Below are positions 1 to 29,001 of a DNA stretch of 64,000 nt, in pieces. How positions within the stretch are numbered: position 1 is the first letter of the stretch; each line of letters starts with the position of its first letter. This DNA comes from an uncultured Flavobacteriaceae bacterium. Its GTDB lineage: Bacteria > Bacteroidota > Bacteroidia > Flavobacteriales > Flavobacteriaceae. Both the position numbers and the translations under genes were made by a program. The notes under the pieces were generated by a model, which ran no database searches, had not been told where the DNA came from, and saw only the letters and a program-made list of their open reading frames with translations. The stretch is taken from positions 776,748-840,747 of the forward strand of contig CANLQD010000001.1 of the NCBI GenBank assembly GCA_947493175.1, in the 5' to 3' direction.

Positions 1-2336
1 TGTCTCGAAAAACCCGCGAGGATGCGTAAGCGCTCCTCGGGAAAGTCTTCCGGTATGAGTCTCCTTTGAAGACTTTCAAAATCGAATTGCTCCTCCTGGG
101 TGGCTACATATCCGGCCTCGTTCCCGTAGACGGCCAGCAGCGACTGCTCGCATTCGGCACAACTTACGAAACAACCATCTTCCACATCGGGGAAGGGTTC
201 AGCCAATTCCGGGTTAATATAGCAATCCTCGGCGGGATCCATCAATTTCGCGATATAGGCATCGGCATATTCCTCCAAGGTGTCAGGATTCACGACCAAA
301 TTCTTCACAATGCTAAAAGCACCCCTTGAGAGGTTCAGCTCAAAATCGGAGGGGTCAAAATTGGCCCTATCCGTGATATAAGAAGCCCCATTGGCATCCA
401 GTACATCTACGAACAAATCATACTCGACGGCCCCTGTGAAGCATTCGAAGGTAAAATCGGTCTGCGCCAACGTATAGCGAAAAGTTCTTCGTTCATCAAA
501 AGGAGCCTGCTTGGTACCGGTGTAGACCAGCGCATCTTCCAATGCACCGAACGTCTGGGTTGCCGATCGGCGGTTGTTATCGGCCTTCGTATCCGAATCG
601 GTCGCCCTTCTCTTTCCTAACAGATCTGCGGTCACGTTGAGATGCAAAGCGGCATTTGTTTCATCTTCCAACGGGTCCAGGTTTGCGGGGGCATCCCCTA
701 ATAAAGCGGTAGCAATGGTGCGCCCCTGCGGATCTATATAGCTAACACTGCGTTGACCGTTGGGATCAATGACCATATTCTTTTTATAGTGTTGGCCGTA
801 CCCTACACTATACCCGAACAAGCGGTTCAGCTCCTTTTGTTCCGGGGTGCCATAATAGTACTCCATTTCATGGGTACTCCCCAGCTTATGGGTGACCCCT
901 ACCCCACTTTTACGGCGAATGCGCCCGGTATTGTCGGGCGTGTACTCAATCTGCGAAAAGGGGTATGCCGCCGCATTTGGAATACGTGCCTTAAAAGGTT
1001 CGTCCACATCGTTTTGATCGGAATAGTATTGGCTCGCACCGCTCTGGGTAGCCATTCCCTTGTCGGCAGTGGCATCGTCCAAAATATTTTGAGCGTCAAA
1101 ATCGAAATCCCGAAAGGTATAGACCTCCCCGGCACTGTTTCGGTTAAAGGGGCTGGCCCCATTGTCAAAATCCCCCAAATAGTCAATGGCAGAAGCGGTG
1201 GCAGTCGAGACAGGCACTGGCAATACTTCCACTGCTGGGCGTCCCTGAGCATCATAGATGACCTCCCCGACGATGACATGATCATCCGAATTTATCTTGG
1301 TGACCGTTTGTCGGTTGCGAAGCGTTCCGTCAAAATAGCTGACCACCTCTTTTTTCTTACCATCCTCGGCATAGGACGCCTGAAACTGCCAGTTTTTGTT
1401 CTCTTGATGATCCGAGTTCAACACGTACACCCGGTTCCAATCATCGAGGGTTATGGCCTGATTGTCTTCTCCATCACTCCAGGGACCAAATACATAGCTT
1501 TTCAGGTCTTCTGGACTGATTCCCACTGCTCGGACTCGATATACCAAATACCCTTTGGAATATATTAAGGGAATGGTGTATTGGGTACCTGTGGTCTGTA
1601 CCCGGGTACTATTTCCTTCAAAATCCCTTTTGGTAAAAGGGATGGTCGTCGGTGCCCGCATGGGTCCGTCGTAATTATCGGCATTACCATCGTAGCCGTC
1701 GATCCAAGTCCATTCCACATCATAGGAAATAGCACCGTCCTGGGCAGACCAGTTCAGTTCCAACTCTTTTCCGGAAGCGTTGGCGCTCGCTACCGAGACA
1801 TTGGGGGGGAACGCCGTGTCCAAGATTTCATAACGATCGGCGGTAAAACCGATTTCGAGCATCACATTCACCGGAACCGTGGTATTGGACACCGAATTGT
1901 CAGGGAGGGTGGTATAGGTACCTCCCACAACTTGAACCCGCGCCCCGTAGGCTCCCATAAATACTTGTTTACCGATATCGACAGATAGGCTCCCGGCCCC
2001 TGCAATCGTATTATTTTCCACGGTTAAAGTAATATTCGAGGGCGTTCCGGTAAACGAACCGTCGGCCGCCGCGGGAACGATGTTCAATTCCAAGGCATAA
2101 GAGTACCAATCACTTACCGGAACCTGCGGATCTAGCAAAAGGCTTACATGGGCCATGGGATTTCCATTGACCAAGCCAGAACGGTCCAAATTAGGCGTCA
2201 CATATTGTAGGGTGGCATTGGTAACCAACTGGGTGTTGTCGAAAATGACGCTTTCCTGAGCGTAGAAGAACCCCATCCATAGAAAAAGGCTACAGCATAT
2301 TCCATTTCGTAGTTGCGCGATGGTCTTTATTGGCAT
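1..2336 (-). CDS. N-terminal part of a giant secreted RHS/YD-repeat protein (DUF6443-like entry motif, FN3-like domain); runs off the left edge
   Basis: Not in the ORF track because it has no stop in the window. Translated by hand from ATG at 2336 (MPIKTIAQLRNGICCSLFLWMGFFYA|QESVIF...), and the same frame reads through to base 1 (...LIPEDFPEERLRILAGFSR). Contains KKEVVSYFDGTLRNRQTVTKINSDDHVIVGEVIYDAQGRPAVEVLPVP (~1210-1380) and VIDPNGQRSVSYIDPQGRTIA (~715-800), both YD/RHS-like. Also an FN3-like LELNWSAQDGAISYDVEW...YRVRAVG segment. Confidence 0.8.
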   Translation of the reverse strand, partial: MPIKTIAQLRNGICCSLFLWMGFFYAQESVIFDNTQLVTNATLQYVTPNLDRSGLVNGNPMAHVSLLLDPQVPVSDWYSYALELNIVPAAADGSFTGTPSNITLTVENNTIAGAGSLSVDIGKQVFMGAYGARVQVVGGTYTTLPDNSVSNTTVPVNVMLEIGFTADRYEILDTAFPPNVSVASANASGKELELNWSAQDGAISYDVEWTWIDGYDGNADNYDGPMRAPTTIPFTKRDFEGNSTRVQTTGTQYTIPLIYSKGYLVYRVRAVGISPEDLKSYVFGPWSDGEDNQAITLDDWNRVYVLNSDHQENKNWQFQASYAEDGKKKEVVSYFDGTLRNRQTVTKINSDDHVIVGEVIYDAQGRPAVEVLPVPVSTATASAIDYLGDFDNGASPFNRNSAGEVYTFRDFDFDAQNILDDATADKGMATQSGASQYYSDQNDVDEPFKARIPNAAAYPFSQIEYTPDNTGRIRRKSGVGVTHKLGSTHEMEYYYGTPEQKELNRLFGYSVGYGQHYKKNMVIDPNGQRSVSYIDPQGRTIATALLGDAPANLDPLEDETNAALHLNVTADLLGKRRATDSDTKADNNRRSATQTFGALEDALVYTGTKQAPFDERRTFRYTLAQTDFTFECFTGAVEYDLFVDVLDANGASYITDRANFDPSDFELNLSRGAFSIVKNLVVNPDTLEEYADAYIAKLMDPAEDCYINPELAEPFPDVEDGCFVSCAECEQSLLAVYGNEAGYVATQEEQFDFESLQRRLIPEDFPEERLRILAGFSR

Positions 2337-2357
2337 CTGTCTTGAGTATTTTCTTGG

Positions 2358-3080
2358 TTATTCGTTTTTTTTGCTTTGGTCTATAAGGCGATAGGCGGTA
2401 TAGGCATCGGCCGCTTTCCGTTGTCCCGAGGATTCCGTAATAAAATCCTCCAAACGCATTTCGGTTATCGTTTCACCAATACGATGTTTTAGATCGATGA
2501 CCAAACGGCCATAGTCTTGCTCGGTATCGCCATTCTTATTGGTAAATGGTATGGGGGTCGAGAAAAAGAGTATTTGTTTATTGATACGGTAATCGTCCTT
2601 ATTAATGTGAAGAACTACCTTCCCATAAGGCAGCTGGGAAAAGGTATTGTTCTCCGGGACCATTTCACAGATATATTCGTTTCCGGAATTAATCAGTTGT
2701 GTCTTTTTAAAATATTGGAGATAGACTGTAAGGTCTACCGGCGTTTCCTGTGCCGCGCCTTCTTTGAAAGATTCGTAGGTCATGGTCTTTTGGTTTTCAT
2801 CCAATACAATTTTCGCCTGGGGAAAAAGGTATACCGTGGTTTCACGTGCTTGGTTCCGCTGAAAACGACCTTTTTTTTCAAAAGTGCCCTCATAAGTTTC
2901 AACGGCCATCGTACTTTCAAAACCACGGTGCAGCCCAAATGATATCGCGACCTTATACTCCGAAAGTCCTTTGTAAAACGTACTAGACTTTTGCAGGATA
3001 CTCCCAACGGTTTCTTCTTGGGCGACCAAGGATGAAAACATGAAAGCAAATAGCAATGCCGTTATCGTTTTTCTATTCAT
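2358..3080 (-). CDS. Periplasmic LolA-like (lipoprotein carrier fold) protein
   Basis: 240 aa with signal peptide ending LVA|QEE. Pattern of N-terminal helix, then F.....YEGTFEKKG, then KIVLDENQKTMTY resembles LolA-family proteins. TAATG overlap with the upstream giant gene at 3080. Confidence 0.55.
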   Translation of the reverse strand: MNRKTITALLFAFMFSSLVAQEETVGSILQKSSTFYKGLSEYKVAISFGLHRGFESTMAVETYEGTFEKKGRFQRNQARETTVYLFPQAKIVLDENQKTMTYESFKEGAAQETPVDLTVYLQYFKKTQLINSGNEYICEMVPENNTFSQLPYGKVVLHINKDDYRINKQILFFSTPIPFTNKNGDTEQDYGRLVIDLKHRIGETITEMRLEDFITESSGQRKAADAYTAYRLIDQSKKNE

Positions 3081-6000
3081 TATCGACTACCGTTTAATTT
3101 TGAATTTCCCGATCGTGTTTCCTGTATGGTATAAATACCTCGTTCGGTCTCTTTTTTGACCCGTACCAAACCTCCTTCGGTATCATACTCGTAGTACGTG
3201 GCGTAGTTGTTCTCGTCCAACTCAGCCTGTAATCGCTGAGTAACTGGATTATAAACGAATGATTTTACGTTGCTATCGATCGGGTGCATACGTACATCGT
3301 CAAAATAGGCATTGGTACCATCTAAATCGGTTATGAGGTTCATTCGCATATAGGCAGCCTGCGCAGGAATGCGGAACACATTGGATATGCGTTGCCAACC
3401 ATCGATAACCGCCCCTTTGGGCTCTAACACCCGTTCGGTATCCGCAAGGTTTATGGGATTGCCATCGATATCCTTGTATTCTAACTGTATCGAAGTATTG
3501 TCATAGTTGATTACGGAGTAATCCGGATTTTCGATGTAATCAAAAATCTCGGTAGTGCCTTCTATTCCTGAATTGGCGGCTCCGTCGGTATCGTAGTTCG
3601 CATAGGTACCTTTTAAGACGGAATCCTCTGGGAGATCAAGCAAAAAACTGGAATTAACTCGTAGGCGATCGCCCGGGATAATACTCACACTATGATGTTC
3701 GATTTCGAGATTTTCGTAGTTTAAGATTGGATAGTTATACCCGAGTCCAAAATCGAGTGGTATTCCAAAAATGCTGCCAAAAGATAGTACTACTTGTGGG
3801 GTACGATACTCCATACGATTGGTCCCCGATGGGTCAAGGGCAAAGGAGTACCCTATACTACGCTCCAACCCATCAATATTTTCCTTCTCAAACCTGAAAT
3901 CGTAAACGGTGACGTTGTTCCCGGCAAAATCTTTGAGATAGGGCAGCACAGCACTCATATCTAGCTCGGGGAACAGATCTTTTACCACAAATTGGCTCGG
4001 TATTTCCAGTACTTCACCTACAATAGTGTTGGTGAGACTATTGAACAAGGCCAGTACCGCCTCCTTGGCCGAATCATCGAGATTAAACTCTATGGTCCCC
4101 GCAGGTTGAGCAGTCAATGCTTCTTCACGTACCCAACCGCTAACGACATATTCACGACCGGGCTGCGGTACGAATTTGATGCAGGTAACCAAATCGGGTT
4201 CGGTTATGTCGTCTAACTCCACAGTAATCGCCAAAACCCTGAGCCCGGCACAAAGGCCCTCATCAATTCGGGCGTAGTAGGTATTACCGGCGGATAAGTT
4301 AGTGGTCTCGAAATAGGGCGAACCGCCAAAGGCCTGATTGTACCAAACGGTAGATTCATCCAAGCGATAATAGGTGGTAATATCAGAAACCGTGCTGCCA
4401 TCGGGAAATAGCACGTCCCATTCGTAAATTTTAGCATTGGCTTCTTCATCTATGACCGATACGCGTACCGGTAATCGATTCTCACTAAAATCGCTTCCAT
4501 TGGTCTGCACCGCATAATAGGTGGCCCCATTGACCAAGAGATCGGCACCATTCAAAGGAGAACCCCCTTCGGAAGAATCGTACCAGTCTATGGTATAGGC
4601 CGGATTCGTGGGTTGCATGGCCAAATTATCTACGGTAGGTTCCGCCGAACTACAGAATTCCTGAAATGTGCTACCGATTGGGACGGGTATTTCGATATTG
4701 ACCAATACCGGTACCCGGCAAAAATTACCATCCTGTGCGGCATAATACACCTGTTCGTCGGTTAAAGAGGTGTTCAACGGTAATTCTACGCTATCGAAAA
4801 AAGAACTGTGCCAGGTGATGTTGATTCCTGTAACCGTTACATCGGCCAAGGTAGGGTTTTCATTCAAGTCAAAAGTCTGGTATTCCAACGCCTCCGGAGC
4901 GCCTAGGTCAAAAATAACTTCCACGGCAATTCGAGAGCCCGAACCGCTGTCTGCCCAAAGGATGGGTTCCAAATCGTACAATATATCGGAAGTGCTATAG
5001 GGGATCCCTCCTACGGGATCGGCATACCAAAATGTAGAAGAGCCCTGAGGCGGTGCCAAATCACCAACGATTGGCGGGTTATCCTCCGCATTGTTACAGA
5101 ACACCTGTGTTTCAATACCATAACATGCGGTAGTGAAAGGGTCGGTTGGTTTTTCGTAGACTCGCACCCCGTCCAACAACATATACACAGGATAGGAGTT
5201 TGAGGGATCATTTGCGGTAGCCTGCGGAGCAAATCGAAGGGTGGTTGAACCTGCCGAGGCCGTAAACTCCAACAAGGCCCTTTGCCAGCGAACATTTCGG
5301 GTACTCGCCGTCATCGGGTTCGATTCCAACTGTTCCCCCGATGCCTGTACCTCCCAAGAACCAAAAGCTTGGTCTACTATTCGAGTGTCCAATAAATTAG
5401 TAGCGTTTGCCTGGTAAAATTGAACGACATAGGTAGTTCCCGGCACCAATCCGTTGACCGTAGTGGTAATGGCCTCAGCGGTATTACCAACCCTGAGGGC
5501 ACCAAAACAGTTGCCCCCGTCGGGTGATGCCATAAAACTATTGAAAAGATAAGGGTCCCCGCTATTTACGAATGGCGTAGCAAATGTGTCAGGATCTCCC
5601 TGGGCCACAGACCATCCGGAGACTTCAAAGGTAGCGTTTCTAGCTTGAGTACTGGCCCCTACCGCTGTTTCAAAACTTCCGTCGGCGATGCTCGATAAGA
5701 GGTCGGTACATTCAGTCGCTGGGGTACATGTTTCAGTAGTTGAAATGGTTTCGGTCGTCTGGTCGGTGCCATCGGTGTCTTGCCAAGCTATTTGTACCGT
5801 ATTATCACCTACTTCCGTATTGGTGGTAAAACGAGTAATCCCCGGTGCCGCCATAAGCGTTCCCGATTGTGAGGTTCCGACCACCTGCCAATTGATCGGG
5901 ACATTTTGGCCATTCGGATTGTTGACTTCCCAATTGCGAAGATTCGTCGGGTTGTCAGAACAAGTAGCGACCAATGAAAGGGCATCCAAGGGAAGAAGCA

Positions 6001-9000
6001 CCCGCTCCAAGAGATTGATTTTTCTTCTGGTGAGCTGTAGCACATCAATGACTGTATTGGAAGCTACAAACCAATACTCCCCTGTATCCGCTACCGGGTC
6101 AAAATCGGTGATGGTCAGGCTACTTCCTGTTTCACCGGGTATCTCAACCCCATCTTTGTACCAGACATAGGTATTATTGGGACTCGAAAGATCTTCCGTT
6201 CCGAGGGTGACATCATCATTTTCCAATACTCGGATGGTTTCCTGCCGGTCTACCAAGGCTTGGGGGTCGTAGGTAAAAATATCCAGTCCGTTTAGATAAG
6301 CAGGATATTCCGCTTCAAAATTGCTGAACACAAAATTATTGTACTCAATAGCCACCTCGGTGTTCGCCACATTGAAATCAGGAATCAATAGCGGGATGTC
6401 ACCTCGAAAGGCATTGTTGTTCAAGCGCACACTACGTAAGGCAGGAATGGTCGAAATTGTTTCAGGAAGTTCCCCGCCGAAATCGTTGTTGGCCAACCAA
6501 AACTCCTCCAACTGGGAGAGATTACCTATGGCACTGGAAATACTTCCGTTCATCTGGTTGTTGGAAACATTGAATCGAATAAGCCCAGGAATACTATAAA
6601 GACTGGTTGGAATACTCTGGACCAATTTGTTATCATTGGCATCAAAATACTGAAGTTGTTGCATGCCCCCCATAGTATCGGGAAGGGCACCGGCAATACG
6701 GTTGTTGGCAATGTCAAATTCGCTTAAGGCGGAAAGGTTTCCGACGGATAATGGAATGGCTCCGACCAGAATATTATCGTTCAGCAGCAAGTACTGCAAA
6801 TTCGCCAAAGCCCCTATGTTATCGGGTATTTGACCAATGATGCTATTTTGCTGTAAATCTATCGATGTTAAAGAGCCCAACTGTGAAAGGCTATTGGGTA
6901 TTTCTCCTCGTAACCCATTGTTGGCAAGGGCTAGACCTGTAACATTGGCATCTACGTCTGTTACGACCCCATACCAATCGCAGACGGGAGCGCTTGTATT
7001 CCAATTGGTGTTAACGGTCCAATTTGGCCCATCGAGGGCATTGTACAAGGCAATCAATGCGTTCCGTTCCAAATCGGAAACCCCACAGGCATCATTCCCG
7101 GCACTGACCTCTAACATGATCATTTCCCTCTCAAGATCAAGACCGGTGACAACACTGTTGGTAGCAGAAAAGTGGTATCCTCCATTATCCGTGGTGGTCA
7201 CATTGGAGAGTATCAGGTCTTTATTCGTTTCACCATCAAGTGGCAATCCGTCTTTAAACCATTGATATTGGTTGTTACTACTGTTCAACACGGTACTTGA
7301 AAGTGTGATGGTTTCACCTGCTTCTGCAGTTTGCTGCTCAGCTTCATCCACATTTGCCTGTGGTGAAAAAGTGAAATTGGCACCTAACTGTCCAAAGAGT
7401 GTCGTGAAGTCCGATTCTAAATCTGTAAAAATGTATTTGTTATTCTCAAGCGCAAGTTGATTAAGGCTTAGAATACCTGTAAAACGCCCTGAAATAAAAC
7501 CACTTAGGTCGTTTCCTGAGAAATCTACCCTTTCTAGCGAAGGAAAAGCGGCAAAAACATCCGGTAGGTTTCCATTGATATTATTATTTGGCAATACGAT
7601 TTCAGTAACGGAATTGTCTACCACCGTTACCCCGTACCAGTCACAGACCAACGAATTGGTATTCGTAATACCCCATATTTGATTACTCGCAGTAGTATTG
7701 TTCCAATTGGCCCCTCCTGTTGCATTGTATAATGTAATTAACGCCTGACGTTCCGATTGATTTACGTCACAGGTGGTTATCACGTTCAAGGTAATCGAAT
7801 TCCGGGTCAACTCAAGCCCTTGTACGGTGCTATTGGAGGCAATGAAGTAATAGGTGCCAGCATCTTCGGCCGTTGCATCCTCAATAAGCAATTCATTGCC
7901 GACCGCATCTGGAATTACCTCATCGGGACTGCTAGCCTTGTACCAGACATAGCTATTGTTAGAACTATTGAGATCGGTCGAAAGGGTAATATCGTTTCCT
8001 AGGGTCACAGATACCGTACTTTCGGTATCTGTATTAGCCTGAGGTGTGTATTCATAAGTAGCCAAAGTACCTGTATAGCCATTGTGTCGCGATTCGAAAT
8101 CGGAAAAGATAAAACGGTTATTTTGGAAGGTGAAAAGCGTTAGGCCTGAATTGGTACCCGAAAAGGGTATAGAACCCGACAACTGATTGTTTTGTACAGC
8201 TATCTCTCTAAGGTTGCCCAATCGGGTCAGTTGGGATGGCAACCTTCCAGTAAGCTGATTGTTTGAAAGATCCAGGCGAACCAAGCTGGCCATCAGTTCA
8301 AACTGTGTCGGTATACTTCCAAAAAGTCCATTATTGGACAGATTCAAATCGGTTACATTTGTAAGGTTACAAAATGAAATTGGGATTTGGCTTTCCAAGT
8401 TGTTGTTAGACAAGTCCATTCTCGTCAGGTTTGATAAGCTGCCCAACGCTGGGGGCAGCTCCCCGGTCAAGCCATTATTGGGAAGAAGCAATACATCCAG
8501 ATCCAATAGCGAACCCAAAGAAGGCGGCAATCCCCCCTGAATACCGTTATTACTTAAATCCAATAGGTTCAAATCGATCAAGTTCCCGATGCTTTCGGGC
8601 AATGTACCGATAACATTGTTGTTGGGTAATTGAATATTGACCAATTCGCCATCTACGACCGTAACACCAAACCAATCACAAACAGGAACTTCGGTATTCC
8701 AGTTGGTACTATTGACCCATGTAGTACCTCCGGTCGCATTATAAAAATCAACAAGGGCCTGTCTTATCGTATCGGAAACACCACAAGGTGCAAGTTCGGA
8801 ATTGAGGGTCCAATTACCACTGGGCTTCTCACATTGCTGGCGGGTCTCAGCTCCTGAATCGGCGAAGCCGTCTTCGTTTTCATCCGCATACCAAATGGTA
8901 TCCGGGTTATAAAGCTGCCCGTCTGCTGCGGGATCGTCGTTACAATCATCTACAGGTAGTACGGTATTCGTGTATCCTGCCCCGGGCGATCCACAGTTGG

Positions 9001-17198: not shown

Positions 17199-17792
17199 TT
17201 ATAACTTTAGAGGGATTTCCTTGAACTTGAATTTTAATATTCCATTGCCGAACAATTGGTCTTGATACACCAATTGTATCTGCTCGTTCTCCGGAATACT
17301 CCCGAAGTGCAGCAATAACTTTTTAAAAGGAGCCAGTTTAAAATTGCGCTCAAAAGTGACTCCGGAACAATTAACGGTATCTCCAGATTGGGTAATGGCC
17401 GTAAAGTCTTTTTCAATCGAAAAAGCCATGTATTCAACAGCTTCTTTGTATCCCAAACCGGTATATTCCGATTTTAAAAGGTCATCCTTAGAATCATGAC
17501 GAAACTCCATTTCTATGACTCGCTCGGTTTTATGAGTTTGATAAATAGAGTCTATAGTGGCTGGGTTTTCAAAACCCTTATTCTTTATAATGTAGTATTG
17601 CAAAGGAACCAATGTCGCGGTATAATCGATATTGGAAACGTGCTGTGATACGGATTTAGACTTCCAACCAGCTCGCTCTAAGTTGAAAAATTTATAGGAA
17701 GTATCGATTTCTTCTAACCCCGTATCTGTCTTACAATTAGAAAAGAATGGCACTATAAATAGCACAAATAATACTGCAATGAAACCTTTCAT
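17199..17792 (-). CDS. Lipoprotein of unknown function
   Basis: 197 aa; hydrophobic signal ending FFSN|CKTDTGLEEID (lipobox Cys followed by an acidic patch); 12 bp from the 2156-aa gene. Confidence 0.7.
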   Translation of the reverse strand: MKGFIAVLFVLFIVPFFSNCKTDTGLEEIDTSYKFFNLERAGWKSKSVSQHVSNIDYTATLVPLQYYIIKNKGFENPATIDSIYQTHKTERVIEMEFRHDSKDDLLKSEYTGLGYKEAVEYMAFSIEKDFTAITQSGDTVNCSGVTFERNFKLAPFKKLLLHFGSIPENEQIQLVYQDQLFGNGILKFKFKEIPLKL

Positions 17793-17834
17793 AAGAGATG
17801 CTTATTTTAAAACTACATTTGTTAAAAGCTGCTC

Positions 17835-19217
17835 TTACTTAAGCCTATTCTCTAATTGTTGTATTCGGTTTTGCAGTTCTTGATTCACAGCCTCCTGCTT
17901 TTTCAAGGCCTTTTGTTGACTAATAAGGTACAAAGTCAACTCCTCTATTTTTTCGAGAAGTCTAAAACTCATTTTTTTAAGTTCCACTCCATTTTTCTGC
18001 ATTTCCGTTGCAGACGGTATATTTGGCAGATGTCCAAAATCTTTTATATATCGCTCTACTTCATCCAATGATTTCAAGCTATAGTCTTTGTAGAATACAT
18101 AATCTGGAGCCACAGCCCCTGCAAGATCTACTTTCACTTCTTGGGTGTGAATTCGACCCTTGACCGATAGCGGGGCATCGGGAGAACTGGTACCAATCCC
18201 AACATTCCCCAACACGTAGGATAGATCTACGCCTGTTTTTGTCCAATTACCTCCCGATGCAGCTGTGGTATCATCCGGATCTGAATTATCAAGAACATAA
18301 TCTGTGGGTTGCTCACATTGTATCAAGGTTTCATTCGGATTTCCCAGTCCGTCACCATCACTGTCTTGATACCAGACCGTATCGGGATTGATATCTCCAT
18401 CGGCGTCATTACAGTCTAAATTATTGGCAACATACCCCGCGGGCTGCGTTGTACTAGTCTGGCTTATATTGGGGTCTCCATAAGTATCAGAGTCGCTATC
18501 CAAATAATATGTAATGGAATACTCTGCATCTATAATATCTTGGATAGAGGGTTGATTGCCGTCCAGTGCCTCCAATCTAGGAGCATATTGAAACTGGCGT
18601 GCACTATTATCGGTGACCTCTCTCAAGAATGCCCTATGTTGCGTCTGAACAGTTCCTGCCGCATATTTGTAATCAGTGATACCAACCACCTTTTGACCGG
18701 TATCGGGGTCATAGATGCCACCTTCGTTTTGGGTACCTGTAAAACCGACTTCGTGCACAATACCCACCATAAGGTACCATTTATCAACTGTAGGCAAATC
18801 ACCTGTGAACATGAATGGGTTGTTATTGGCCGAACCATCTAGCCTAGCGACGCTTTTAACATTGGATCCATCCCAAGCATTGAGTGCAAATCGGGTAGTA
18901 CCACTTGCATTTCCTGTTTTCTTTATCCAAACCATATAGCGGTGTGCAACTGAAGCATCAATGGCAACTCTGGAGGTTTGCCATCCTCCATCATTGGAAT
19001 TCCCGTCTGTTGGAACACAGGTCCAGAGCAACTGTTGCTGCCCACCGGGAGCCTCTCCGAAGGCACGAACACTGTTTGCATCGGCACCGTATCTATTAAA
19101 GCCAGGGGCCGAACCTTGACCTTCGCTCCACGTGGAATCGTCCAAAAGGTTGGTTTGACCCTTGATGGTACTGCAAAACGCAATCGCAACGATTGCCATA
19201 ATAAGTTGCTTTTTCAT
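17835..19217 (-). CDS. Secreted trimeric fibre-like protein: beta-sandwich head, MopE-like acidic motifs, GNVGIGT beta-helix, S74-chaperone-like segment and coiled coil
   Basis: 460 aa; signal ending IKG|[15 protein letters not shown]...DCNDAD...[11 protein letters not shown] motifs. C-terminus [27 protein letters not shown]...APDYVF...HLPNIPSA...[13 protein letters not shown] followed by heptads. Confidence 0.7.
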
Positions 19218-19321
19218 TTTCTTTGGTTTGGTTATTCTCGATGGTTTTCGAATATTACTCTAATGGTATTTATTACTATTTAAGTTTGTAAGAGGGCGTG
19301 AACCTTTGCATGCCTGTTCAA

Positions 19322-19831
19322 TTAATCTCCCTCATAGTTTGTATTCGCATAGGATATAAATGCATCAGTGATGTCTATCGCCTCTTGGGCAAACATAACA
19401 TTGCCTTGTCCTTGTGTACCAAGCACTATCTTATAACTATTCGCTAGGCTATACTTTTGTATATAGGTATTCAAACGATTCCAAACTGCTTGACTTAACT
19501 CACTCGAGAAACGTTCATTCATATCTTTCAGTTCTTTGTCTGTGCCCCTCAGTTGCGCCTCCAGGGCTTCTAGCTTATCCGTTTGGTTGTTATCTCGAAG
19601 AATACCATAAATGACGTAAAGACTGTCTAACTTCTTTTTTTGGGCCTTTACTTTTTTTCCGTTGATTTGATTAAGGTCCTTGGTCATATTGAAACCGTTG
19701 AACAGTCTGATATTATCGATATAAACAATTTCCTCGGTATCGTCGGAATATTTGAAAAAGAAAAAAACAATTAACCCCAGTAGTAGAATCGTATTACAAA
19801 AAGTAACAAGAAAAAAAGTCTTTTGATTCAT
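19322..19831 (-). CDS. OmpH/Skp-family periplasmic chaperone-like protein
   Basis: N-terminal anchor, IVYIDNIRLFNGFNMTKDL, long helical middle, YKIVLG...GNVMFAQEAIDITDAFISYAN. Start moved from 19858 (GTG) to ATG 19831. Confidence 0.75.
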   Translation of the reverse strand: MNQKTFFLVTFCNTILLLGLIVFFFFKYSDDTEEIVYIDNIRLFNGFNMTKDLNQINGKKVKAQKKKLDSLYVIYGILRDNNQTDKLEALEAQLRGTDKELKDMNERFSSELSQAVWNRLNTYIQKYSLANSYKIVLGTQGQGNVMFAQEAIDITDAFISYANTNYEGD

Positions 19832-19858
19832 TATATCGTCGAAAGATGAAGGAAACAC

Positions 19859-19872
19859 TCAAATATATTTGA
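19859..19872. promoter_or_regulatory. Perfect 14-bp palindrome TCAAATATATTTGA containing a Bacteroidota -7 box (TATATTTG) on both strands
   Basis: Read directly from the sequence; lies 28 bp upstream of the OmpH-like ATG in the gap after the pilus/T2SS-like genes. No clear -33 TTG found. Confidence 0.4.
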
Positions 19873-19918
19873 AAAAAAAATCTTATAAAAGTAGAACGTT
19901 AAAAAAAAATTAAAAAAG

Positions 19919-20401
19919 TTAATTTTTTACAAAACTACGCTCCTCTTTTCCATTTAAAACGACCAAAGCGACTTTGGAAATTTCTATGATTTGAAGTCCA
20001 TTTACCTCGTCTTTTGCATTTACACGATGTAATCTTCCGTCGATACGCATTAATCCCAACCGGCCTTTGCTATTGCTCGACTTTACAAATCCCAAATATT
20101 CTATTTTAGGCCAAAGAACTGGCTTTGCAGAAGCAACGGGCCTCTTTTTTACTTTTTTTGAAGCTATTTTTTTAGGCTTCGATACCGACTTGGTCTTTCC
20201 CAAAAAAGGATCGCGTTCGGGAAAGTTAAGTACCACGGCATCCTTTTTTCTTGTTTTTGCAATAGTTGCTTTTGCTGGAAGCTCTTTAATTTGCACTATA
20301 TCGGTATCGCTGAAATAAGGAGCTATCAATTTATATGACACCACTCCCCAAATACAGAAAACGGCTATTATTAGTAAAACATTTATTTTCTTTTTATTCA
20401 T
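19919..20401 (-). CDS. PilP/GspC-like inner-membrane-anchored component
   Basis: 160 aa; single N-terminal TM, RDPF motif, basic linker, C-terminal beta domain (IEYLGFV...LGLMRIDG....VN..DEV.G..I.EIS) like the PilP/GspC HR domain. Confidence 0.6.
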   Translation of the reverse strand: MNKKKINVLLIIAVFCIWGVVSYKLIAPYFSDTDIVQIKELPAKATIAKTRKKDAVVLNFPERDPFLGKTKSVSKPKKIASKKVKKRPVASAKPVLWPKIEYLGFVKSSNSKGRLGLMRIDGRLHRVNAKDEVNGLQIIEISKVALVVLNGKEERSFVKN

Positions 20402-21361: not shown

Positions 21362-21872
21362 AATTCTGAAATATTATTTGTTCATACAATCGCTTCTTTC
21401 TAGTTCTCGGTTCTCTTTCAATATAGAAATGCAAGCCTACCACACGGGAATAGTCGAATTCCTTCTCATAGTAATAAGTGGCCTTTAATAGTCCTTTATA
21501 GCTACCGGACAAAATCAGCCTATTGGTATAAATATTAAAATATTCGTTTTTAGCAATATGGATTTCCTCTAATCTCACCAGTTCTGATCTGGAGGATATG
21601 CTGTTAAAAGTATTCAGGATTTCCTGCTGAACCACATCGGCACTGGCGGCTTGCTTTCCGATAATCCGGTCCAAATATGTCACATCGCTCTTAACCGAGG
21701 CTATTTTCTGCTGAGAATTACTTACTTCTAAGAGTTTGGTCCTTGAAGACTGCAGATTTTCATAAGCATCAAAAGCCAAAGAGAAAGATCTTTTGTAAGC
21801 GGTAAACCCCATAATTGCCAATAAGGAAATCAAAGCAAAAAATTTCTTTCGATAAGAAATATTTTCAAACAT
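21345..21872 (-). CDS. PilO/GspM-like component
   Basis: 175 aa; N-terminal TM, coiled coil, ferredoxin-like C-terminus (LILSGSYKGLLKATYYYE); position in the cluster next to the PilMN-like gene. Confidence 0.55.
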   Translation of the reverse strand: MFENISYRKKFFALISLLAIMGFTAYKRSFSLAFDAYENLQSSRTKLLEVSNSQQKIASVKSDVTYLDRIIGKQAASADVVQQEILNTFNSISSRSELVRLEEIHIAKNEYFNIYTNRLILSGSYKGLLKATYYYEKEFDYSRVVGLHFYIEREPRTRKKRLYEQIIFQNYEKIE

Positions 21873-23061
21873 TGAACTTTAATTTTAACCTGATGATAAA
21901 GCTGCTACTTGCACCTTCTTTTCGAAAGTCAACGATTTCAAGATTTGCCACCCAGAAACTATTTTTAAGTATCCCTATCCAGCCAGTAAAGGCATCGTTG
22001 GATAATGTCTCCCCAGTAATTTCTATTTGATCATTTTTGAAAAAAACCTGTTCCTCCGGCTTTATTTTACTGGTTGGTGGAAATATGCTGAGACTCATCA
22101 GGTTTATTCCAGAAGGGATTTCTTTTGTAATTTCCGACAGGTAGTAACTAAGAAAGTTGCTATCATTCAAACCCGACTCGTTCAACATTATTTCTTTATT
22201 GTCCCTATCTTTTTGCAGTAATACCAATTTGTTATAGGCAATATTCTCTTCCTCGATGGCTATCTGCAAATTTATATAGGACTTCTGGTAATGGCCTAAC
22301 AACAAATAGCTTATTAACAGCGCGAGAAGGAAACTGGGCAACGCTATTGCCCCAATTGTATTAAAGGCTTTTCGAAACCTAAACTCACTCCGGTTGGTTT
22401 CAAGAAAACTATTCTCAAAATCAATAGTATCATGGGGAAATAGGTATTGCAATAATGTGGCAAAAGACACACTATTCTTTCTGGTGATTTCCTCTCCATC
22501 AATTTCATAGCTGTTCGTATCGTCTGAAGGGGCAAGTTTAGAAAAATCGGACACCGTATTCTTTTGAAAGCGCATCTCAAAAAATCTCGTAAAAAGGGAA
22601 CCCGCGTCTGGCAATAATGGTTTTATGGCAGCTATAACAAAAGGACCAATACTTATATCAACAATAAAAACCTGATTTTTGTTAAATAACTCAAGTTCAT
22701 TGTCTATTACCGATTTACGTACAACTGAGGCATAAATATATCCAGACTGTACTAGTTCATACCAATAAAAATCATCGGCATTCGCATTAAAAATCAATTT
22801 AGAACGGTGGTTTCCCGTATTCTCCAGTTTTTTGGAAATAATTCCTTGACCCGTAAAAGATAATAGGGTGGGTCTATTTTTGGGTATTTCCTTTAACAAC
22901 TCCTCAAAACCTATGTAGGTAGTCGAGGAATCTATAAACAGGGAATTGTTCTTTTGTAAAACCTCTATTACCTGGTACAGCGTACTATCTTCTTGTATCG
23001 ATACCTCGATACACAGAAACCGCTTCTCGGATAGTATATTATTAAATACTTTCTGAACCAT
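21865..23061 (-). CDS. PilM-PilN fusion / GspL-like component
   Basis: 398 aa; cytoplasmic actin-like N-terminal part, one TM (~aa 235-260), coiled coil, PilN-like C-terminus (IEITGETLSNDAFTGWIGILKNSFWVANLEIVDF). Confidence 0.6.
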   Translation of the reverse strand: MVQKVFNNILSEKRFLCIEVSIQEDSTLYQVIEVLQKNNSLFIDSSTTYIGFEELLKEIPKNRPTLLSFTGQGIISKKLENTGNHRSKLIFNANADDFYWYELVQSGYIYASVVRKSVIDNELELFNKNQVFIVDISIGPFVIAAIKPLLPDAGSLFTRFFEMRFQKNTVSDFSKLAPSDDTNSYEIDGEEITRKNSVSFATLLQYLFPHDTIDFENSFLETNRSEFRFRKAFNTIGAIALPSFLLALLISYLLLGHYQKSYINLQIAIEEENIAYNKLVLLQKDRDNKEIMLNESGLNDSNFLSYYLSEITKEIPSGINLMSLSIFPPTSKIKPEEQVFFKNDQIEITGETLSNDAFTGWIGILKNSFWVANLEIVDFRKEGASSSFIIRLKLKFNV

Positions 23062-24983
23062 TAGTAGACCAATGTTGGTTTAATAAACACATGAAGTTTC
23101 GACTTTTCCTTTGCCCTTCGCTTACTACTAAAAAACCACTTGATTACCGGGATTCTTGAGAGGAAAGGAGTGCCCGTTCCCGAGTTCTCCTTCTCCAACT
23201 CGTCCAATCCACCCAACAAAATCATCTCATTGTTCCTAACACGAATTAAAGACTCGAATTTTTGTGTTGATTTACCAGGAGGTGCGTTTTCCCCGGCACG
23301 ACCCAAGAAAGCGCTCTTTTCAACTACGATGTTCAAAGTAATATGCTCATCTTTTGAAACATAGGGTAGTATATCGACGCTAAGATTTGCCTCGGTCGGT
23401 TTCCATTGGCCCGACTGAAGAATATTGTCATTAACCCCTGAATTTATGAGTCTGTTGGTCTGTTCAAAATAGTAGTTGGTCTCTCCAATGGAAACGTTCG
23501 CTTTATGGCCACTCAAAGTGGCAATTTTGGGCGTAGATTTTAACTGAATAATGGAGTTGTTCTCCAATGCACTCAGATTTGCATAAAAGTTCTCGGCGAC
23601 CTTTCCGATATTGATGATTCCTAAACCATTAAAGGCGTCGATCAACTTATTGATCGAGGTAGAATTTACAGTAGCATCTACTGTTGGGAACAATACTCCT
23701 TCGGTCTTGACATCTTTTCCATCCTCACTTAAAATACCCTGTAGGCCTGTTTGAATGTCATATCCTTTCTGGTATTGTACTATTAGCACCTCAATTTGCA
23801 CCAAAGGAACCACTTTGTCCAATTGCCGAATTACTAATTTTAGTTCCTCTAAAATAGGCTTCGACCCTGAAACCAAAATCCCGTTAAGCTCTACGAATTC
23901 CTGCATTTCCACATCTTGCACATAGGCTTTAGGCAACGTATTTAGAACCGTTTCAATAGTTCTATTTTCTAGTTGTATCAATTCTGTTTGCCGTAGCCCT
24001 TCCGTTGTTTGGAGTCCTATGAGGTACAGATCCTCCAACTTTTTGGAAGTATATCTGGTTCCTTTAAACACATGATCAAGCAGGCTGTCGAAATCGATGC
24101 TGTCCGAATAAAATGTGGATATCACTTCATCGGGCTTATCATAAAAAAAGTAATTGATGTTCAACAAATCGGATGCTTTGGAAATTAGGGTGGTTGCATC
24201 GATTTCATAGGCGCGTATCGTCAAAAAACCCTGCTCGTTCATGTCTAATTCAAGTTCGCCTGGGGCAACGGTGCCCTTTGTATTTCTAGTCGACCCCCTT
24301 CTTCTTGCGGAGGTCCTTCGCCCTTGATCGGGAACCTGGTCCAGCTCCAAAGCTTTGGATAAAAAATAAAACCCATTTTCATCTACGGAAGCAATCAATT
24401 GATTGGAACGGGCAATCATTTCGATTACCTGATCAAAAGGTCTATTGATAATATAAGCCGAAACTTTCATCATTTTTACTTCCGGTGCCAGAACGATATT
24501 CTTATTGGACAGTTCGGTAATTCGCTCTGCCACCAACGGCAGGGAATCGTTCTTTAGTTTTACCGATAAGAAGTCATTTGCCTGATTAAAAGAAATATCG
24601 ATGGGCTTTTTAGGTTTCTCTTTGGGAACGTCTCTTGCGATTTCCCGTTTTCTGAAGGTGATGATTTCGTTCATATAACCTACTTCAAGATTATATTTAT
24701 TGGCTAGAAAAATATAAATATCCCTTACTTTAACATCGAAGAAATTACTGACCACCATCTCTGTAAGTCCAGGGTCGGCACTTACGTTGATTCGATGTTC
24801 CTCTGCCAAGGAGGTTATGATTTCGAATAAAGTTAGTCCGGAGACGTCCAACTCTGTAAGTTCATCGAGACCAGGTCGTTCTTTGGCTACTTCATCGAAT
24901 AACTGTTCCAGCGTTTGTGTTTGGTTTTGGGGGAACGCAATGCCCACAAACAGTATACTGATTACTACTACTACCTTTCTCAT
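23061..24983 (-). CDS. gspD: Secretin (GspD/PilQ family)
   Basis: 640 aa; signal peptide; secretin motifs VQIEVLIV, PKIATLSGHKANVSIGE, VRNNEMILLGGL, GTPFLSRIPVIKWFFSS and LHVFIKPTLV. Confidence 0.92.
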   Translation of the reverse strand: MRKVVVVISILFVGIAFPQNQTQTLEQLFDEVAKERPGLDELTELDVSGLTLFEIITSLAEEHRINVSADPGLTEMVVSNFFDVKVRDIYIFLANKYNLEVGYMNEIITFRKREIARDVPKEKPKKPIDISFNQANDFLSVKLKNDSLPLVAERITELSNKNIVLAPEVKMMKVSAYIINRPFDQVIEMIARSNQLIASVDENGFYFLSKALELDQVPDQGRRTSARRRGSTRNTKGTVAPGELELDMNEQGFLTIRAYEIDATTLISKASDLLNINYFFYDKPDEVISTFYSDSIDFDSLLDHVFKGTRYTSKKLEDLYLIGLQTTEGLRQTELIQLENRTIETVLNTLPKAYVQDVEMQEFVELNGILVSGSKPILEELKLVIRQLDKVVPLVQIEVLIVQYQKGYDIQTGLQGILSEDGKDVKTEGVLFPTVDATVNSTSINKLIDAFNGLGIINIGKVAENFYANLSALENNSIIQLKSTPKIATLSGHKANVSIGETNYYFEQTNRLINSGVNDNILQSGQWKPTEANLSVDILPYVSKDEHITLNIVVEKSAFLGRAGENAPPGKSTQKFESLIRVRNNEMILLGGLDELEKENSGTGTPFLSRIPVIKWFFSSKRRAKEKSKLHVFIKPTLVY

Positions 24984-26416
24984 TATTGGGCTTCAATTAT
25001 AATGGAATATACTTCCTCAATTGAGGTTATTCCTTTTTTTACCAGTTCTATGGCCTTATCGGAAAGCCTTGAAAAATTCTTTTCGGAAACGAAAGAATCT
25101 AGATGGGAGGGTGCTTTCTTTATTTCCTGAGAAAGCGAAGCATCAATCGGGATTACTTCATAGATAGCGGTACGGCCATTATAGCCGGTATAATAACAGC
25201 TTTCGCAGCCTTTCGGACTCCAATGACCGGAAAGGATTTTGAAGGCTCCGTGATGATATTCCCCACCAACAGTATCGCAAAATTTCTTGCAGTCGTTGCA
25301 TAACTTGCGAACCAGTCGTTGGGCCACCGAGATTTTTAAAGTCTCGGCAATCAAAAATGCCGGGACACCCATATCTACTAACCTTGAAATGGTTCCCAAC
25401 GCCGAGTTTGTATGAATAGTCGATAAGACCAAATGCCCGGTTAAGCTGGCGCGGATTGCCATTTCGGCTGTTGCGCCGTCCCTGATCTCCCCTAACATTA
25501 TAATATCGGGGTCTTGACGTAAAAAGGTTCGAAGGGCACTTGTAAAGGTGAGTCCTATCTCTTCTCTTAACTGTACTTGATTAATTCCTTTTAAAGTATA
25601 TTCTATGGGATCCTCAACTGTAACAATATTCGTCTTGATATCGTTCAAAAGTTTTAAACTGGCATATAGTGTAGTTGTTTTCCCAGAACCAGTAGGCCCG
25701 CTTATGAGAATGATTCCTTTTGATGCTTTGAGCGCTTCGAGGTACAGACTTTTTTCGTCTTTGGTCATTCCCAATTTATCAATGCTCAAATGATCTGTGT
25801 CCCTACCCAAAATACGCATTACGATTTTTTCGCCATGGAGGGTAGGAAGAATGGACACCCTAATATCAAAATCATCATAATTTATGCGGCCATCTTGGGG
25901 CAATCTTTTCTCGGTGATATCGAGGTTTGATTTGATCTTAATCTTATTGACAAGTTCCAAATAGTTCTCATTTTCTATTTTATACTTTTCAATAAGCTTT
26001 CCGTCAATTCGATATCTAATGCGCCCGTCATCTTTGAAAACTTCAAAATGGATATCACTGCTCCCGATTGCTTTAGCCTCGAAAATCAGGTCTTGCAAAA
26101 AGTCTTGGGAGGAAATCCTAAAGCTTTTTTCGGTTCCTGCCTGGACGGCAGACTCCATCTCCCGTCCATAATATTGTGATAGTGCCTTAACTACCTTTTC
26201 AGACGGTGCAGGGTATAACCTCACCTTTTTTCCGAGAATTAGCTCCAACTCATCTGACAAGGTCTCGAATAATTTTGACTCGTCAACAAAAAAAGTAATC
26301 ATAGACTCATCCTTTTCCTTAGGAATGATTCCATAATTGTGTGCAAGGTCTGAATTAATGACCTGCTGTTCTTCCGTGGTCAACACTATTTCGGATATCA
26401 TTGGTTGGTTAGTCAA
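24983..26416 (-). CDS. gspE: GspE/PilB-family assembly ATPase
   Basis: Walker A GPTGSGKTTT, VEDPIEY, LRQDPDIIMLGEIRD, GHLVLSTIHTN, and tetra-Cys CNDC...CESC. Start is TTG 26416 or ATG 26401. Confidence 0.95.
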   Translation of the reverse strand: MTNQPMISEIVLTTEEQQVINSDLAHNYGIIPKEKDESMITFFVDESKLFETLSDELELILGKKVRLYPAPSEKVVKALSQYYGREMESAVQAGTEKSFRISSQDFLQDLIFEAKAIGSSDIHFEVFKDDGRIRYRIDGKLIEKYKIENENYLELVNKIKIKSNLDITEKRLPQDGRINYDDFDIRVSILPTLHGEKIVMRILGRDTDHLSIDKLGMTKDEKSLYLEALKASKGIILISGPTGSGKTTTLYASLKLLNDIKTNIVTVEDPIEYTLKGINQVQLREEIGLTFTSALRTFLRQDPDIIMLGEIRDGATAEMAIRASLTGHLVLSTIHTNSALGTISRLVDMGVPAFLIAETLKISVAQRLVRKLCNDCKKFCDTVGGEYHHGAFKILSGHWSPKGCESCYYTGYNGRTAIYEVIPIDASLSQEIKKAPSHLDSFVSEKNFSRLSDKAIELVKKGITSIEEVYSIIIEAQ

Positions 26417-26898
26417 ACAAGTTTGGCTTCAAAAAAATCAAGGTCGGTTATATAAACAATGCATTTCAGGATCAACATGTAAATTGCCAACAATCCTGCT
26501 AATGGCACTAAATTTGTTTTCGAAATCATCTTTATCACCAAGAAAGCGAAAATTGAAAAGAGCATTCCGGTGATGAAGTATAGAATATAGTTTATCGTCG
26601 AAAAGTAAGGTATTACCGCTAAAAAAAAAAGAAAATCTCCTTTGCCTATCGATTTAAAAAGATTTACGAACTTCCTTTCTTTCAACGAAAGATATACGTA
26701 TAATCCTAAACAAGTAACCAATAAGAACAAAAAATTATGCCATAAAATTATTATAGGGTAGGACCTTTCAAAAAAGAGAATTAGTCCAATGAGTATGATT
26801 AACAAAGGTAAAACAATGTGTATAGCCCTCTTTATCATGTCTTGATAAAAAATAAGCAAAAACAATACCCAAAGAACTACCTCTAAAAAAACCACCAC
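26413..26898 (-). CDS. Minimal prepilin peptidase (family A24), no methyltransferase domain evident
   Basis: 161 aa, multi-TM; two catalytic-type Asp in FYQD and IGKGD; adjacent to the pilin gene. Confidence 0.75.
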   Translation of the reverse strand: MVVFLEVVLWVLFLLIFYQDMIKRAIHIVLPLLIILIGLILFFERSYPIIILWHNFLFLLVTCLGLYVYLSLKERKFVNLFKSIGKGDFLFFLAVIPYFSTINYILYFITGMLFSIFAFLVIKMISKTNLVPLAGLLAIYMLILKCIVYITDLDFFEAKLV

Positions 26899-26902
26899 AC
26901 AT

Positions 26903-27343
26903 TTAGTCTTTTACCGTTTCTCTGAGCGACTTTTTACTATCGATTTCCCAGGTATTGTAATTGCCATCATCATCAAAATCTGACAAGGAAGTAGCCGTTG
27001 CACGGAAAGAATTGGTAGAAGCCTCTATTATCTCGATTTTATAGACCGCTTGTCCTCCCTCATCTATGGTCATCGCAGGCTCAAAACCTATTTCCTCAAA
27101 ATCGGAAGAATAACGAGAGTAGCGATAAAAGTGGTTTTTCTGCAAACCGTACAAATGATTAAGCATACTTTGGGCCTCGATAGATTTGGCTTGTGATATG
27201 ACGGAGGTCTGACTTGGCAATACCATCAATAATAAGATTCCAATAATGCACAGCACTATCAAGATTTCAGTCATTGAATAGGCGGCAGCATAGTATCTAT
27301 CCTTCTCGTTTCTTTGCTGAAAACTCTTATTTCCCACGAACAC
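26903..27343 (-). CDS. Major pilin / pseudopilin (PilE/GspG-like)
   Basis: 146 aa; class III signal ...YYAAA|YSMTEILIVLCIIGILLLMVLP with Glu at +5. Confidence 0.85.
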   Translation of the reverse strand: MFVGNKSFQQRNEKDRYYAAAYSMTEILIVLCIIGILLLMVLPSQTSVISQAKSIEAQSMLNHLYGLQKNHFYRYSRYSSDFEEIGFEPAMTIDEGGQAVYKIEIIEASTNSFRATATSLSDFDDDGNYNTWEIDSKKSLRETVKD

Positions 27344-27392
27344 TATAACATTTTTTTAACACAACAAAACTAAACTATTTTTCCGATTTCTT

Positions 27393-28532: not shown

Positions 28533-29001
28533 AATCAGTTTTATAATCTTGTATACTTAGATACTTTTTAGCCACTTTAAACTGAATAGGCACTTCAAAC
28601 AAGAGAAAGCTCATCTGTGCGCTTTGTATTAGATTTTCGTTCGTATTCGGGTCTTTTATTGAAGAAACATCAATCCTATAGATTCTTAAACTATCTCGAT
28701 TTTGATTCTGTATCCGATACATATATCCTTTTTTAACTTCGTAGTAGCTGCGTGACATATCATACCGTATGGCCTCAAACGAGTTGGTTGTACCCACTAC
28801 TTTCTCAGCCTCAAAAAAATCCGCTTTCAAGCGTAAACAAAAATTGCTCAGTGCAAGCTCCTCGTCTACACCGGAACGATACTCAAAAACCTGTTTTGAA
28901 AAAGAGGAATACACATAGTACACCATCCCAATAATAATCGACATTATGACGATGTTTATCAATACCTCTAATATGGTAAAAGCCTTAAGGGAGGTCTTCA
29001 T
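28522..29001 (-). CDS. Minor pseudopilin (GspJ/PilW-like)
   Basis: MKTSLKA|FTILEVLINIVIMSIIIGMVY with Glu at +5. Confidence 0.8.
   Translation of the reverse strand: MKTSLKAFTILEVLINIVIMSIIIGMVYYVYSSFSKQVFEYRSGVDEELALSNFCLRLKADFFEAEKVVGTTNSFEAIRYDMSRSYYEVKKGYMYRIQNQNRDSLRIYRIDVSSIKDPNTNENLIQSAQMSFLLFEVPIQFKVAKKYLSIQDYKTDYGN

Follow-up and report, generated by a model that had tools for sequence, protein, structure and literature searches.

The window analysed here, a stretch of 64,000 nucleotides from the genome of an uncultured Flavobacteriaceae bacterium (GenBank assembly GCA_947493175.1, contig CANLQD010000001.1, positions 776,748 to 840,747), begins inside a giant gene of the RHS family that lies on the minus strand and runs past the left edge. 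The part of the gene within the window (positions 2336 to 1) most probably encodes the N-terminal ~23% of a single-chain, Sec-exported RHS/YD polymorphic toxin of ~3,000-4,000 residues, which would leave the cell with the help of a module of neighbouring genes and be directed against neighbouring cells. The gene is an ordinary member of the annotated DUF6443-RHS group typical of marine Flavobacteriaceae. The interest of the locus lies mainly in the linkage of the RHS gene to a gene of the LolA3 family and in the conserved module to which both belong, and less in the RHS gene itself.

The open reading frame of the RHS gene

The first 778 codons of the gene (3..2336, minus strand) form an open reading frame (ORF) with 91 database homologues. 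The frame is free of stop codons from the stop of the preceding gene (2358-2360) to window position 3, and its first ATG is at 2336. A run of 778 stop-free codons would occur by chance with a probability of ~2e-17 at the local base composition, and the remaining five frames contain 12-44 stops each. An earlier note on this DNA had pointed to an open frame of more than 770 codons that was missing from the list of ORFs; the frame exists, and it is missing because the program that made the list skips ORFs running off an end. All motifs quoted in that note were located in the frame: YDVEWTW at aa 205, VSYFDGTLRNRQ at aa 332 (window 1308-1343), VIYDAQGRPAVEVLP at aa 359 (window 1218-1262), IDPNGQ at aa 523, and IDPQGR at aa 534. 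The suspected DUF6443-like entry motif corresponds to a significant match of Pfam family PF20041 to aa 319-383 (1188..1382; E 1.9e-11, 44.8 bits, with the gathering score of 27.8 as cutoff). The same family is found in 90 of the 91 homologues. The G+C content of the RHS fragment (window 1-2000) is 0.51, compared with 0.41-0.49 across the rest of the cluster (2001-20000).

Full-length orthologues

The organization of the complete protein can be predicted from its orthologues. A scan of species-representative genomes identified 80 related loci, nearly all of them from Flavobacteriaceae. The source genome of the window is not among the representatives scanned, which contain only relatives with at best 65% identity. 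This closest relative, from Ulvibacterium marinum, aligns over residues 12-776 and is 3,407 aa long. For the left flank, an exact 39-mer scan of metagenome contigs gave 0 matches, and a k-mer index of SRA gave 0 runs. Orthologues that are 38-65% identical to the window protein over its 778 residues are single ORFs, and each of the 43 complete orthologous ORFs encodes a single chain of 2,956-4,054 aa.

The Flavobacteriaceae orthologues consist of the N-terminus, YD repeats, a single RHS core near residue 3,000, and a hypervariable tip. In the closest two scanned in full, from Ulvibacterium (L006) and Pelagihabitans (L009), DUF6443 is positioned near residue 320, RHS_repeat matches aa ~2,450-2,900 (5.6e-14 and 3.5e-8), and Rhs_assc_core (TIGR03696) covers residues 3,082-3,164 or 3,160-3,242. 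Each of the two core motifs, YRYGFQGxE and DPRxGRFxxxDP, is found a single time; 42 of the 43 complete ORFs contain one or both of them, and 39 contain both. The motifs are located at aa ~2,730-3,800 and are followed by 250-430 residues.

Conservation of the orthologues peaks at residues 200-600 and 2,300-3,100. It is low, with many gaps, at 1,500-2,100 and breaks down in the tip. Canonical YD motifs are limited to residues ~2,300-3,100, and residues 700-2,300 are variable and rich in cysteine. BLASTP similarity was detected in 780 of 780 pairs for the first 800 residues and for the last 600 residues before the tip, and in 7 of 780 pairs for the tips. Ten tips were scanned for domains; one, from the Ulvibacterium orthologue, is Colicin M-like, one contains RES, and one contains a pretoxin-HINT (PT-HINT) domain. 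In most loci a small ORF lies directly downstream of the RHS gene. The core of the window gene should be positioned ~7 kb, and its stop ~8 kb, past the left edge, if the layout of the orthologues applies. The earlier note had read the frame as the start of a giant RHS-family toxin gene whose core and tip lie outside the window, and the lengths of the orthologues, their RHS_repeat and TIGR03696 matches, and their hypervariable tips agree with this reading.

Two side observations concern the region ahead of the core. A GCX_COOH "3-coathanger stack" is located between the YD repeats and the core in the Ulvibacterium (aa 2958-2993) and Pelagihabitans (aa 3036-3075) proteins. In a Flavobacterium clade (L077, L084, L085), thrombospondin-type calcium-binding repeats, DTDGDGIGDVCDNC, are positioned just ahead of the core.

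Domains and structural model of the N-terminal part

The AlphaFold model of the in-window part, based on 91 homologues, has a mean predicted local distance difference test score (pLDDT) of 87 and a predicted template modelling score (pTM) of 0.71. The N-terminus, MPIKTIAQLRNGICCSLFLWMGFFYA followed by QES, reads as a signal-peptidase-I signal peptide (aa 1-25; 2262..2336, minus strand) with predicted cleavage between A and Q, and residues 4-18 form a helix in the model. The earlier note had also described a signal peptide. Signal peptides of orthologues also end at A followed by Q. Bacteroidota prefer glutamine after the signal cleavage site (the "Q-rule"), and the signal ends of the orthologues fit this preference.

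The signal peptide is followed by two beta-sandwich domains (aa ~26-170 and ~185-285; 1482..2261, minus strand), which are modelled with pLDDT >90. Tandem structures of fibronectin type III (FN3) domains match both sandwiches with a Foldseek probability of 1.0. The earlier note had recognized an FN3-like domain; the model has two immunoglobulin (Ig)/FN3-like sandwiches. The second of them is FN3-like and bears the conserved EWTW motif. The alignment columns of W196, E208, W209, and R267 are invariant among 22 sequences (alignment A1).

The DUF6443 block forms the first long beta-hairpins of an RHS-type sheet, with six long strands at residues 303-375 of the model. It is the most conserved part of the family, with a mean pairwise identity of 0.68 among 30 full-length orthologues. 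A loop region connects these strands to YD-like hairpins at aa 460-546 (699..959, minus strand), which contain the motifs YTPDNTGRI and IDPNGQ..SYIDPQGRTIAT in nearly invariant columns and score under the Pfam RHS_repeat threshold. In the remaining part (3..572, minus strand), another beta domain (aa ~589-682) precedes the beginning of a helical region rich in Cys (aa 684-778), as delimited from the model, conserved Cys columns, and the layout of the Ulvibacterium protein. In orthologues, the latter region opens an insert of ~1,600 aa ahead of the main YD shell.

In a search of PDB structures, the top match of the in-window model was the mosquito protein SGS1 (8fjp), with an E-value of 6.5e-10. 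Weak Foldseek matches were obtained to the core of a VgrG-Rhs protein and to a bacterial teneurin-like protein (TLP). A search of PDB sequences with the profile of the N-terminal part gave no matches.

Comparison with known RHS proteins

The window family shares the DUF6443 match with the DUF6443-RHS proteins of Bacteroidota and, in its orthologues, also the YD repeats, TIGR03696, and variable C-terminal toxins. Such proteins are annotated as "DUF6443 domain-containing protein" or "RHS repeat-associated core domain-containing protein". The window subfamily differs in its greater length (~3,000-4,000 aa), in the position of DUF6443, which begins only at aa ~320 after the signal peptide and two Ig/FN3 domains, and in the ~1,600-aa insert. 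A literature search of the searchable library found no paper on DUF6443 and no experimental work on the family.

SGS1, with a mass above 300 kDa and a PDB chain of 2,932 aa, forms an Rhs/YD cocoon from one chain and has accessory domains inserted in the repeat region (PMC9935623). It begins with a beta-propeller, whereas the window protein begins with Ig/FN3 domains. In addition, SGS1 is eukaryotic, and its C-terminal cargo consists of membrane helices (PMC9935623). Searches of the PDB revealed no similarity to SGS1 at the sequence level.

Bacterial TLPs are built of an FN-plug, an NHL domain, and a YD shell, and have been reported from six phyla, Bacteroidota not among them (PMC13018210). The FN3-type domain of the window protein, positioned right before the first shell strands, recalls the FN-plug of TLPs and teneurins. 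Sec-dependent display, polymorphic C-terminal toxins, and immunity genes are described for TLPs (PMC13018210) and form part of the reading proposed here for the window family. However, no NHL domain was matched in the window fragment or in the orthologues scanned, and the TLP structure 9ifo was matched to the in-window model with a Foldseek probability of only 0.13.

The Rhs effectors of the type VI secretion system (T6SS) share the logic of cocoon, core, and toxin with the window family. The YD region of an orthologue has weak sequence matches to the effectors Tse5 (8cp6), RhsA (7q97), and VgrG-Rhs (8qja), with E-values of 8e-7 and 1e-3. However, T6SS Rhs effectors have PAAR, prePAAR, or VgrG N-termini and no signal peptide, whereas the window protein has a Sec signal. 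No PAAR domain was matched in the RHS protein, and no T6SS domain was found among the window ORFs scanned, which include most of the large ones. Sorting domains for type IX secretion (T9SS; TIGR04183/TIGR04131) were absent from the full-length Ulvibacterium and Pelagihabitans proteins, the C-termini of which are toxin tips, and from the two other giant proteins of the window. In these scans, the RHS protein and its orthologues did not show the features that define TcC proteins, T6SS Rhs effectors, or T9SS cargo, and the Sec signal of the protein is not predicted by the logic of Tc, T6SS, or T9SS cargo.

Linkage of the RHS gene to LolA3

The gene directly upstream of the RHS gene (2358..3080, minus strand; 240 aa) belongs to the LolA3 family (NCBIfam LolA3_fam, E 1.3e-48, 165.5 bits, cutoff 83). 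A gap of 21 nt separates its stop from the ATG of the RHS gene, and its start codon shares bases with the stop of the gene before it (TAATG). At least 62 of 85 related loci have a LolA3-like ORF as the immediate upstream neighbour of the RHS gene. All ten of the upstream ORFs tested, which come from different genera, match LolA3_fam, eight of them above the curated cutoff. An exact protein look-up of the LolA3 of the window found no record.

LolA3 corresponds to Fjoh_0605 in Flavobacterium johnsoniae and to PGN0947 in Porphyromonas gingivalis (PMC11885536, PMC13103446). Deletion of lolA3 affected neither gliding nor type IX secretion, and the binding of LolA3 to LolB was weak; a function could not be assigned to the protein in these studies, which do not mention RHS genes (PMC11885536, PMC13103446). 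A literature search on the F. johnsoniae neighbours of Fjoh_0605 found nothing.

The conserved module and its giant proteins

An array of co-directional genes on the minus strand ends, as far as visible, with the RHS gene. The order of the conserved module is OmpH, a ~200-aa protein, a ~2,000-aa protein, a variable leucine-rich repeat (LRR)/Ig protein, LolA3, and RHS.

The variable LRR/Ig giant (3080..10804, minus strand; 2,574 codons) has Pfam matches to Ig_7, LRR, and Ig_3. The TTG at 10804 that is listed as its start lies within the end of the gene before it, and the true start is likely the ATG at 10684 (aa 41 of the listed ORF), with which a typical signal peptide would begin, MKKAFVIYGLVLMTTAFA. 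The protein is conserved in its last ~150 aa (window 3080-3520) and variable elsewhere. In other genomes (L002, L003, L040, and others), these ~150 aa form a stand-alone protein of ~190 aa, the gene of which lies between those for the conserved giant and for LolA3.

Most loci encode, upstream of the RHS gene, an orthologue of the conserved ~2,000-aa protein, giant 1 (10716..17186, minus strand; 2,156 residues), with 42-59% identity. The family of giant 1 comprises at least 1,625 proteins, with no Pfam domain except for an occasional thrombospondin type 3 repeat (TSP_3); giant 1 has one such region, near its C-terminus. The AlphaFold model of its first 1,200 residues (pLDDT 66) is a run of long hairpins, with residues ~100-440 modelled at low-to-medium confidence. 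The best matches of the model are secretin barrels, designed transmembrane barrels, porins, and autotransporter barrels, which weakly suggests that giant 1 may be a membrane barrel. The assignment of giant 1 as TcB-like, based on an SpvB motif recognized by eye, was rejected: the Pfam E-value is 0.14, in one of 21 orthologues, a search of PDB sequences with the profile of giant 1 found no match, hhalign against the RHS family gave a probability of 0.1, and the model is barrel-like.

Three genes are located further upstream on the minus strand. The first (17199-17792) encodes a conserved lipoprotein-like protein of 197 aa and is syntenic in 28 loci. It is followed, within 17199..19858, by a gene for a 460-aa protein and by a gene for an OmpH/Skp-like chaperone (19322-19858; OmpH E 2.9e-9), which is syntenic in 15 loci. 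The 197-aa gene and the OmpH gene are also present in Olleya sp. (L086), F. zepuense (L087), and Aquimarina sp. MAR_2010_214 (L088).

Type II secretion-like genes and the wider window

The array continues, through small genes and a gene for an Ig-like lipoprotein, into a set of genes related to type II secretion and type IV pili (21865-30566, minus strand), co-directional with the toxin module. The set includes genes for a PilN-like protein (21865-23061; Pfam PilN), a secretin (23061-24983; Pfam Secretin, 1.7e-32), a GspE-type ATPase (24983-26416; Pfam T2SSE, 9.5e-122), a GspF-type platform protein (27393-28532; Pfam T2SSF, 2.3e-42), and a pseudopilin (28522-29001; Pfam N_methyl). In Olleya sp. 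the whole array, including the secretion genes, has the same order as in the window. One Flavobacterium locus encodes a GspF homologue downstream of its RHS gene.

A cluster of ~35 kb in F. psychrophilum CC-ST10 contains GspD/E/G-type genes, an OmpH/Skp chaperone, exported proteins, and an adhesin, and was proposed to have a dedicated role in translocation (PMC5808330). The cluster is of the same kind as that of the window, combining secretion genes, OmpH, and toxin-like exported proteins. An F. psychrophilum locus (L037) is among the relatives recovered here. However, the F. psychrophilum genes are arranged in two divergent loci, compared with the single co-directional array in the window. 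Furthermore, the cluster is known by annotation only, and neither LolA3 nor the ~2,000-aa protein was singled out (PMC5808330).

Upstream of the secretion genes is a gene for a DUF5117/DUF4953 met-zincin (31500-34085, minus strand). The right half of the window (35150-64000) contains the housekeeping genes ilvD, accC, fabH, pdxA, and alr, and a gene for an S9 prolyl oligopeptidase, indicating that the cluster is chromosomal.

One chain or several components

In the TcB-TcC cocoon of Tc (ABC) toxins, the payload is reportedly held inside an RHS shell closed by the RHS core (Busby et al. 2013). The window family resembles this arrangement in its predicted encapsulating shell and core, and in the natural split into N-terminal and C-terminal genes observed in one lineage. 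The earlier note had placed the RHS protein as a TcC-like partner that completes the shell, that is, as the third component of a multi-gene ABC toxin for which the two other giants would provide the TcA and TcB parts. The three co-directional giant genes, the sub-threshold SpvB-like motif at aa 77-125 of giant 1, the split of the RHS protein in one lineage, and the F. psychrophilum cluster, in which two proteins have domains of the Yersinia ABC toxin (PMC5808330), speak for such a system. However, what the window contains of the shell is its N-terminal end, the one that resembles TcB; in the orthologues, both shell ends belong to one chain. No significant SpvB, TcdB-mid, VRP1/TcA, or RHS domain was detected in either giant with Pfam and NCBIfam. 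There is no TcA match in the window system, and no significant SpvB or beta-propeller. The searches with the giant 1 profile were equally negative, and its model resembles membrane beta-barrels rather than a Tc component. Finally, the RHS protein, unlike TcC, carries a Sec signal peptide. An ABC toxin with the RHS protein as its TcC component is therefore very unlikely. Because the DUF6443 block and ~800 residues of YD repeats are present in one chain, and no Tc parts were detected in the giants, a self-contained cocoon similar to a fusion of TcB and TcC is the best-supported reading.

The window gene could alternatively stop after ~1,100-1,200 codons, with the YD shell, core, and toxin encoded by a separate gene. 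Such an arrangement occurs in a distant clade (P0058), ten metagenomic members of which end with a conserved C-terminus at 1,127-1,172 aa. In one of its loci (L004, 10001-22083), gene 1 encodes a DUF6443 module of 1,127 aa, and gene 2 encodes a protein of 2,895 aa that carries cadherin and lectin domains, the RHS shell, and the core, and ends in a Muramidase domain. Gene 2 is 35% identical to the shell and core of the single-chain proteins over 847 residues. According to this split, the DUF6443 module comes first and resembles TcB, and the second part, which resembles TcC, includes the core and toxin. This is the reverse of the earlier note, which had taken it as established that the second gene of such systems begins with the DUF6443-type motif. 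The window protein shares only ~30% identity with this clade, and all nearer relatives from Flavobacteriaceae (38-65% identity) are single ORFs, which leaves a split of the window gene with little probability.

Protein-database lengths also suggested a DUF6443-only family of ~1,100 aa, which was rejected since the genome loci contain ORFs of 3,000-4,000 aa. Downstream of two such entries, P0001 and P0033, are ORFs colinear with the single-chain giant (L001, 10001-19722; L002, 10001-21856), indicating that the entries are frameshift fragments. The ~1,100-aa entries in databases are thus mostly assembly fragments. The actual unit is a single chain of ~3,400 aa, in which both ends of the cocoon are present with a long variable insert between them, and one lineage is split exactly like TcB and TcC.

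It is highly improbable that the gene is a remnant, truncated or decayed past the window edge into an orphan N-terminal fragment: RHS loci are prone to rearrangement, and in one of the 43 complete orthologues (L029) both core motifs are missing and an overlapping ORF follows, suggesting a frameshift, but the 778 codons are free of stops and keep the invariant residues of the family, the operon junctions are intact, and the core motif is kept in the other 42 orthologues. A surface protein for adhesion or recognition that uses an RHS shell as its scaffold, in the manner of teneurins and SGS1, works with the LRR/Ig giant, and is not chiefly a toxin has a similarly slight chance, since the match to SGS1, the Ig/FN3 domains, and the adhesin-like neighbour genes are opposed by the toxin-immunity signature of hypervariable tips (Colicin M-like, RES, PT-HINT, and muramidase) with small downstream ORFs, and by the retention of the core aspartate motif in orthologues.

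Proposed organization and export of the toxin

According to the single-chain reading, the N-terminal part of the window protein would be followed by a variable Cys-rich insert of ~1,600 residues, ~800 residues of canonical YD repeats, a single RHS core with the two-aspartate motif DPRxGRFxxxDP, and a hypervariable toxin of 250-430 residues, as in the orthologues. A small immunity gene is probably next after the toxin. The two RHS-type segments together may form one closed cocoon around the toxin, as in the fused TcB-TcC and in SGS1.

The protein would be transported by Sec into the periplasm, where the co-encoded OmpH/Skp-like and LolA3-like proteins may handle it. Its exit or surface display could be aided by the ~2,000-aa protein, the LRR/Ig protein, and, in the genome of the window, the adjacent type II-like machine; the LRR/Ig protein may supply adhesion. 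The payload would be used on neighbouring cells. These are most likely bacterial, because the tips of relatives include Colicin M-like, RES, and muramidase domains.

Several points weigh against this reading. None of the RHS_repeat (PF05593/TIGR01643) and RHS-core profiles matched the 778 in-window residues at E <= 0.01, so that, of the profiles named in the earlier note, DUF6443 was found within the window and the RHS core was not. The core, toxin, and immunity gene, which would lie past residue 778 of the window gene, are assigned by homology. That the DUF6443 hairpins and the distal YD repeats would join in one shell is deduced from the orthologous sequences, and the secretion route is inferred from gene context. 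In addition, the module begins at OmpH in F. zepuense and Aquimarina sp. MAR_2010_214, with unrelated genes upstream in place of the secretion set.

The conserved module may represent an undescribed pathway of Flavobacteriia for the export or display of Sec-dependent single-chain cocoon toxins larger than 350 kDa, coupled in some genomes to a dedicated type II-like machine, with LolA3 as the periplasmic escort of the toxin or its partner. This proposal is tentative and could well prove wrong.

With the window gene, the large annotated family of RHS toxins, which lacks experimental study, gains one member. The tight and widespread linkage of LolA3 to RHS genes provides a concrete, testable hypothesis for the role of LolA3. 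The module bears on how very large Sec-dependent toxins, with neither a type VI nor a type IX signal, are moved through the outer membrane by Bacteroidota.

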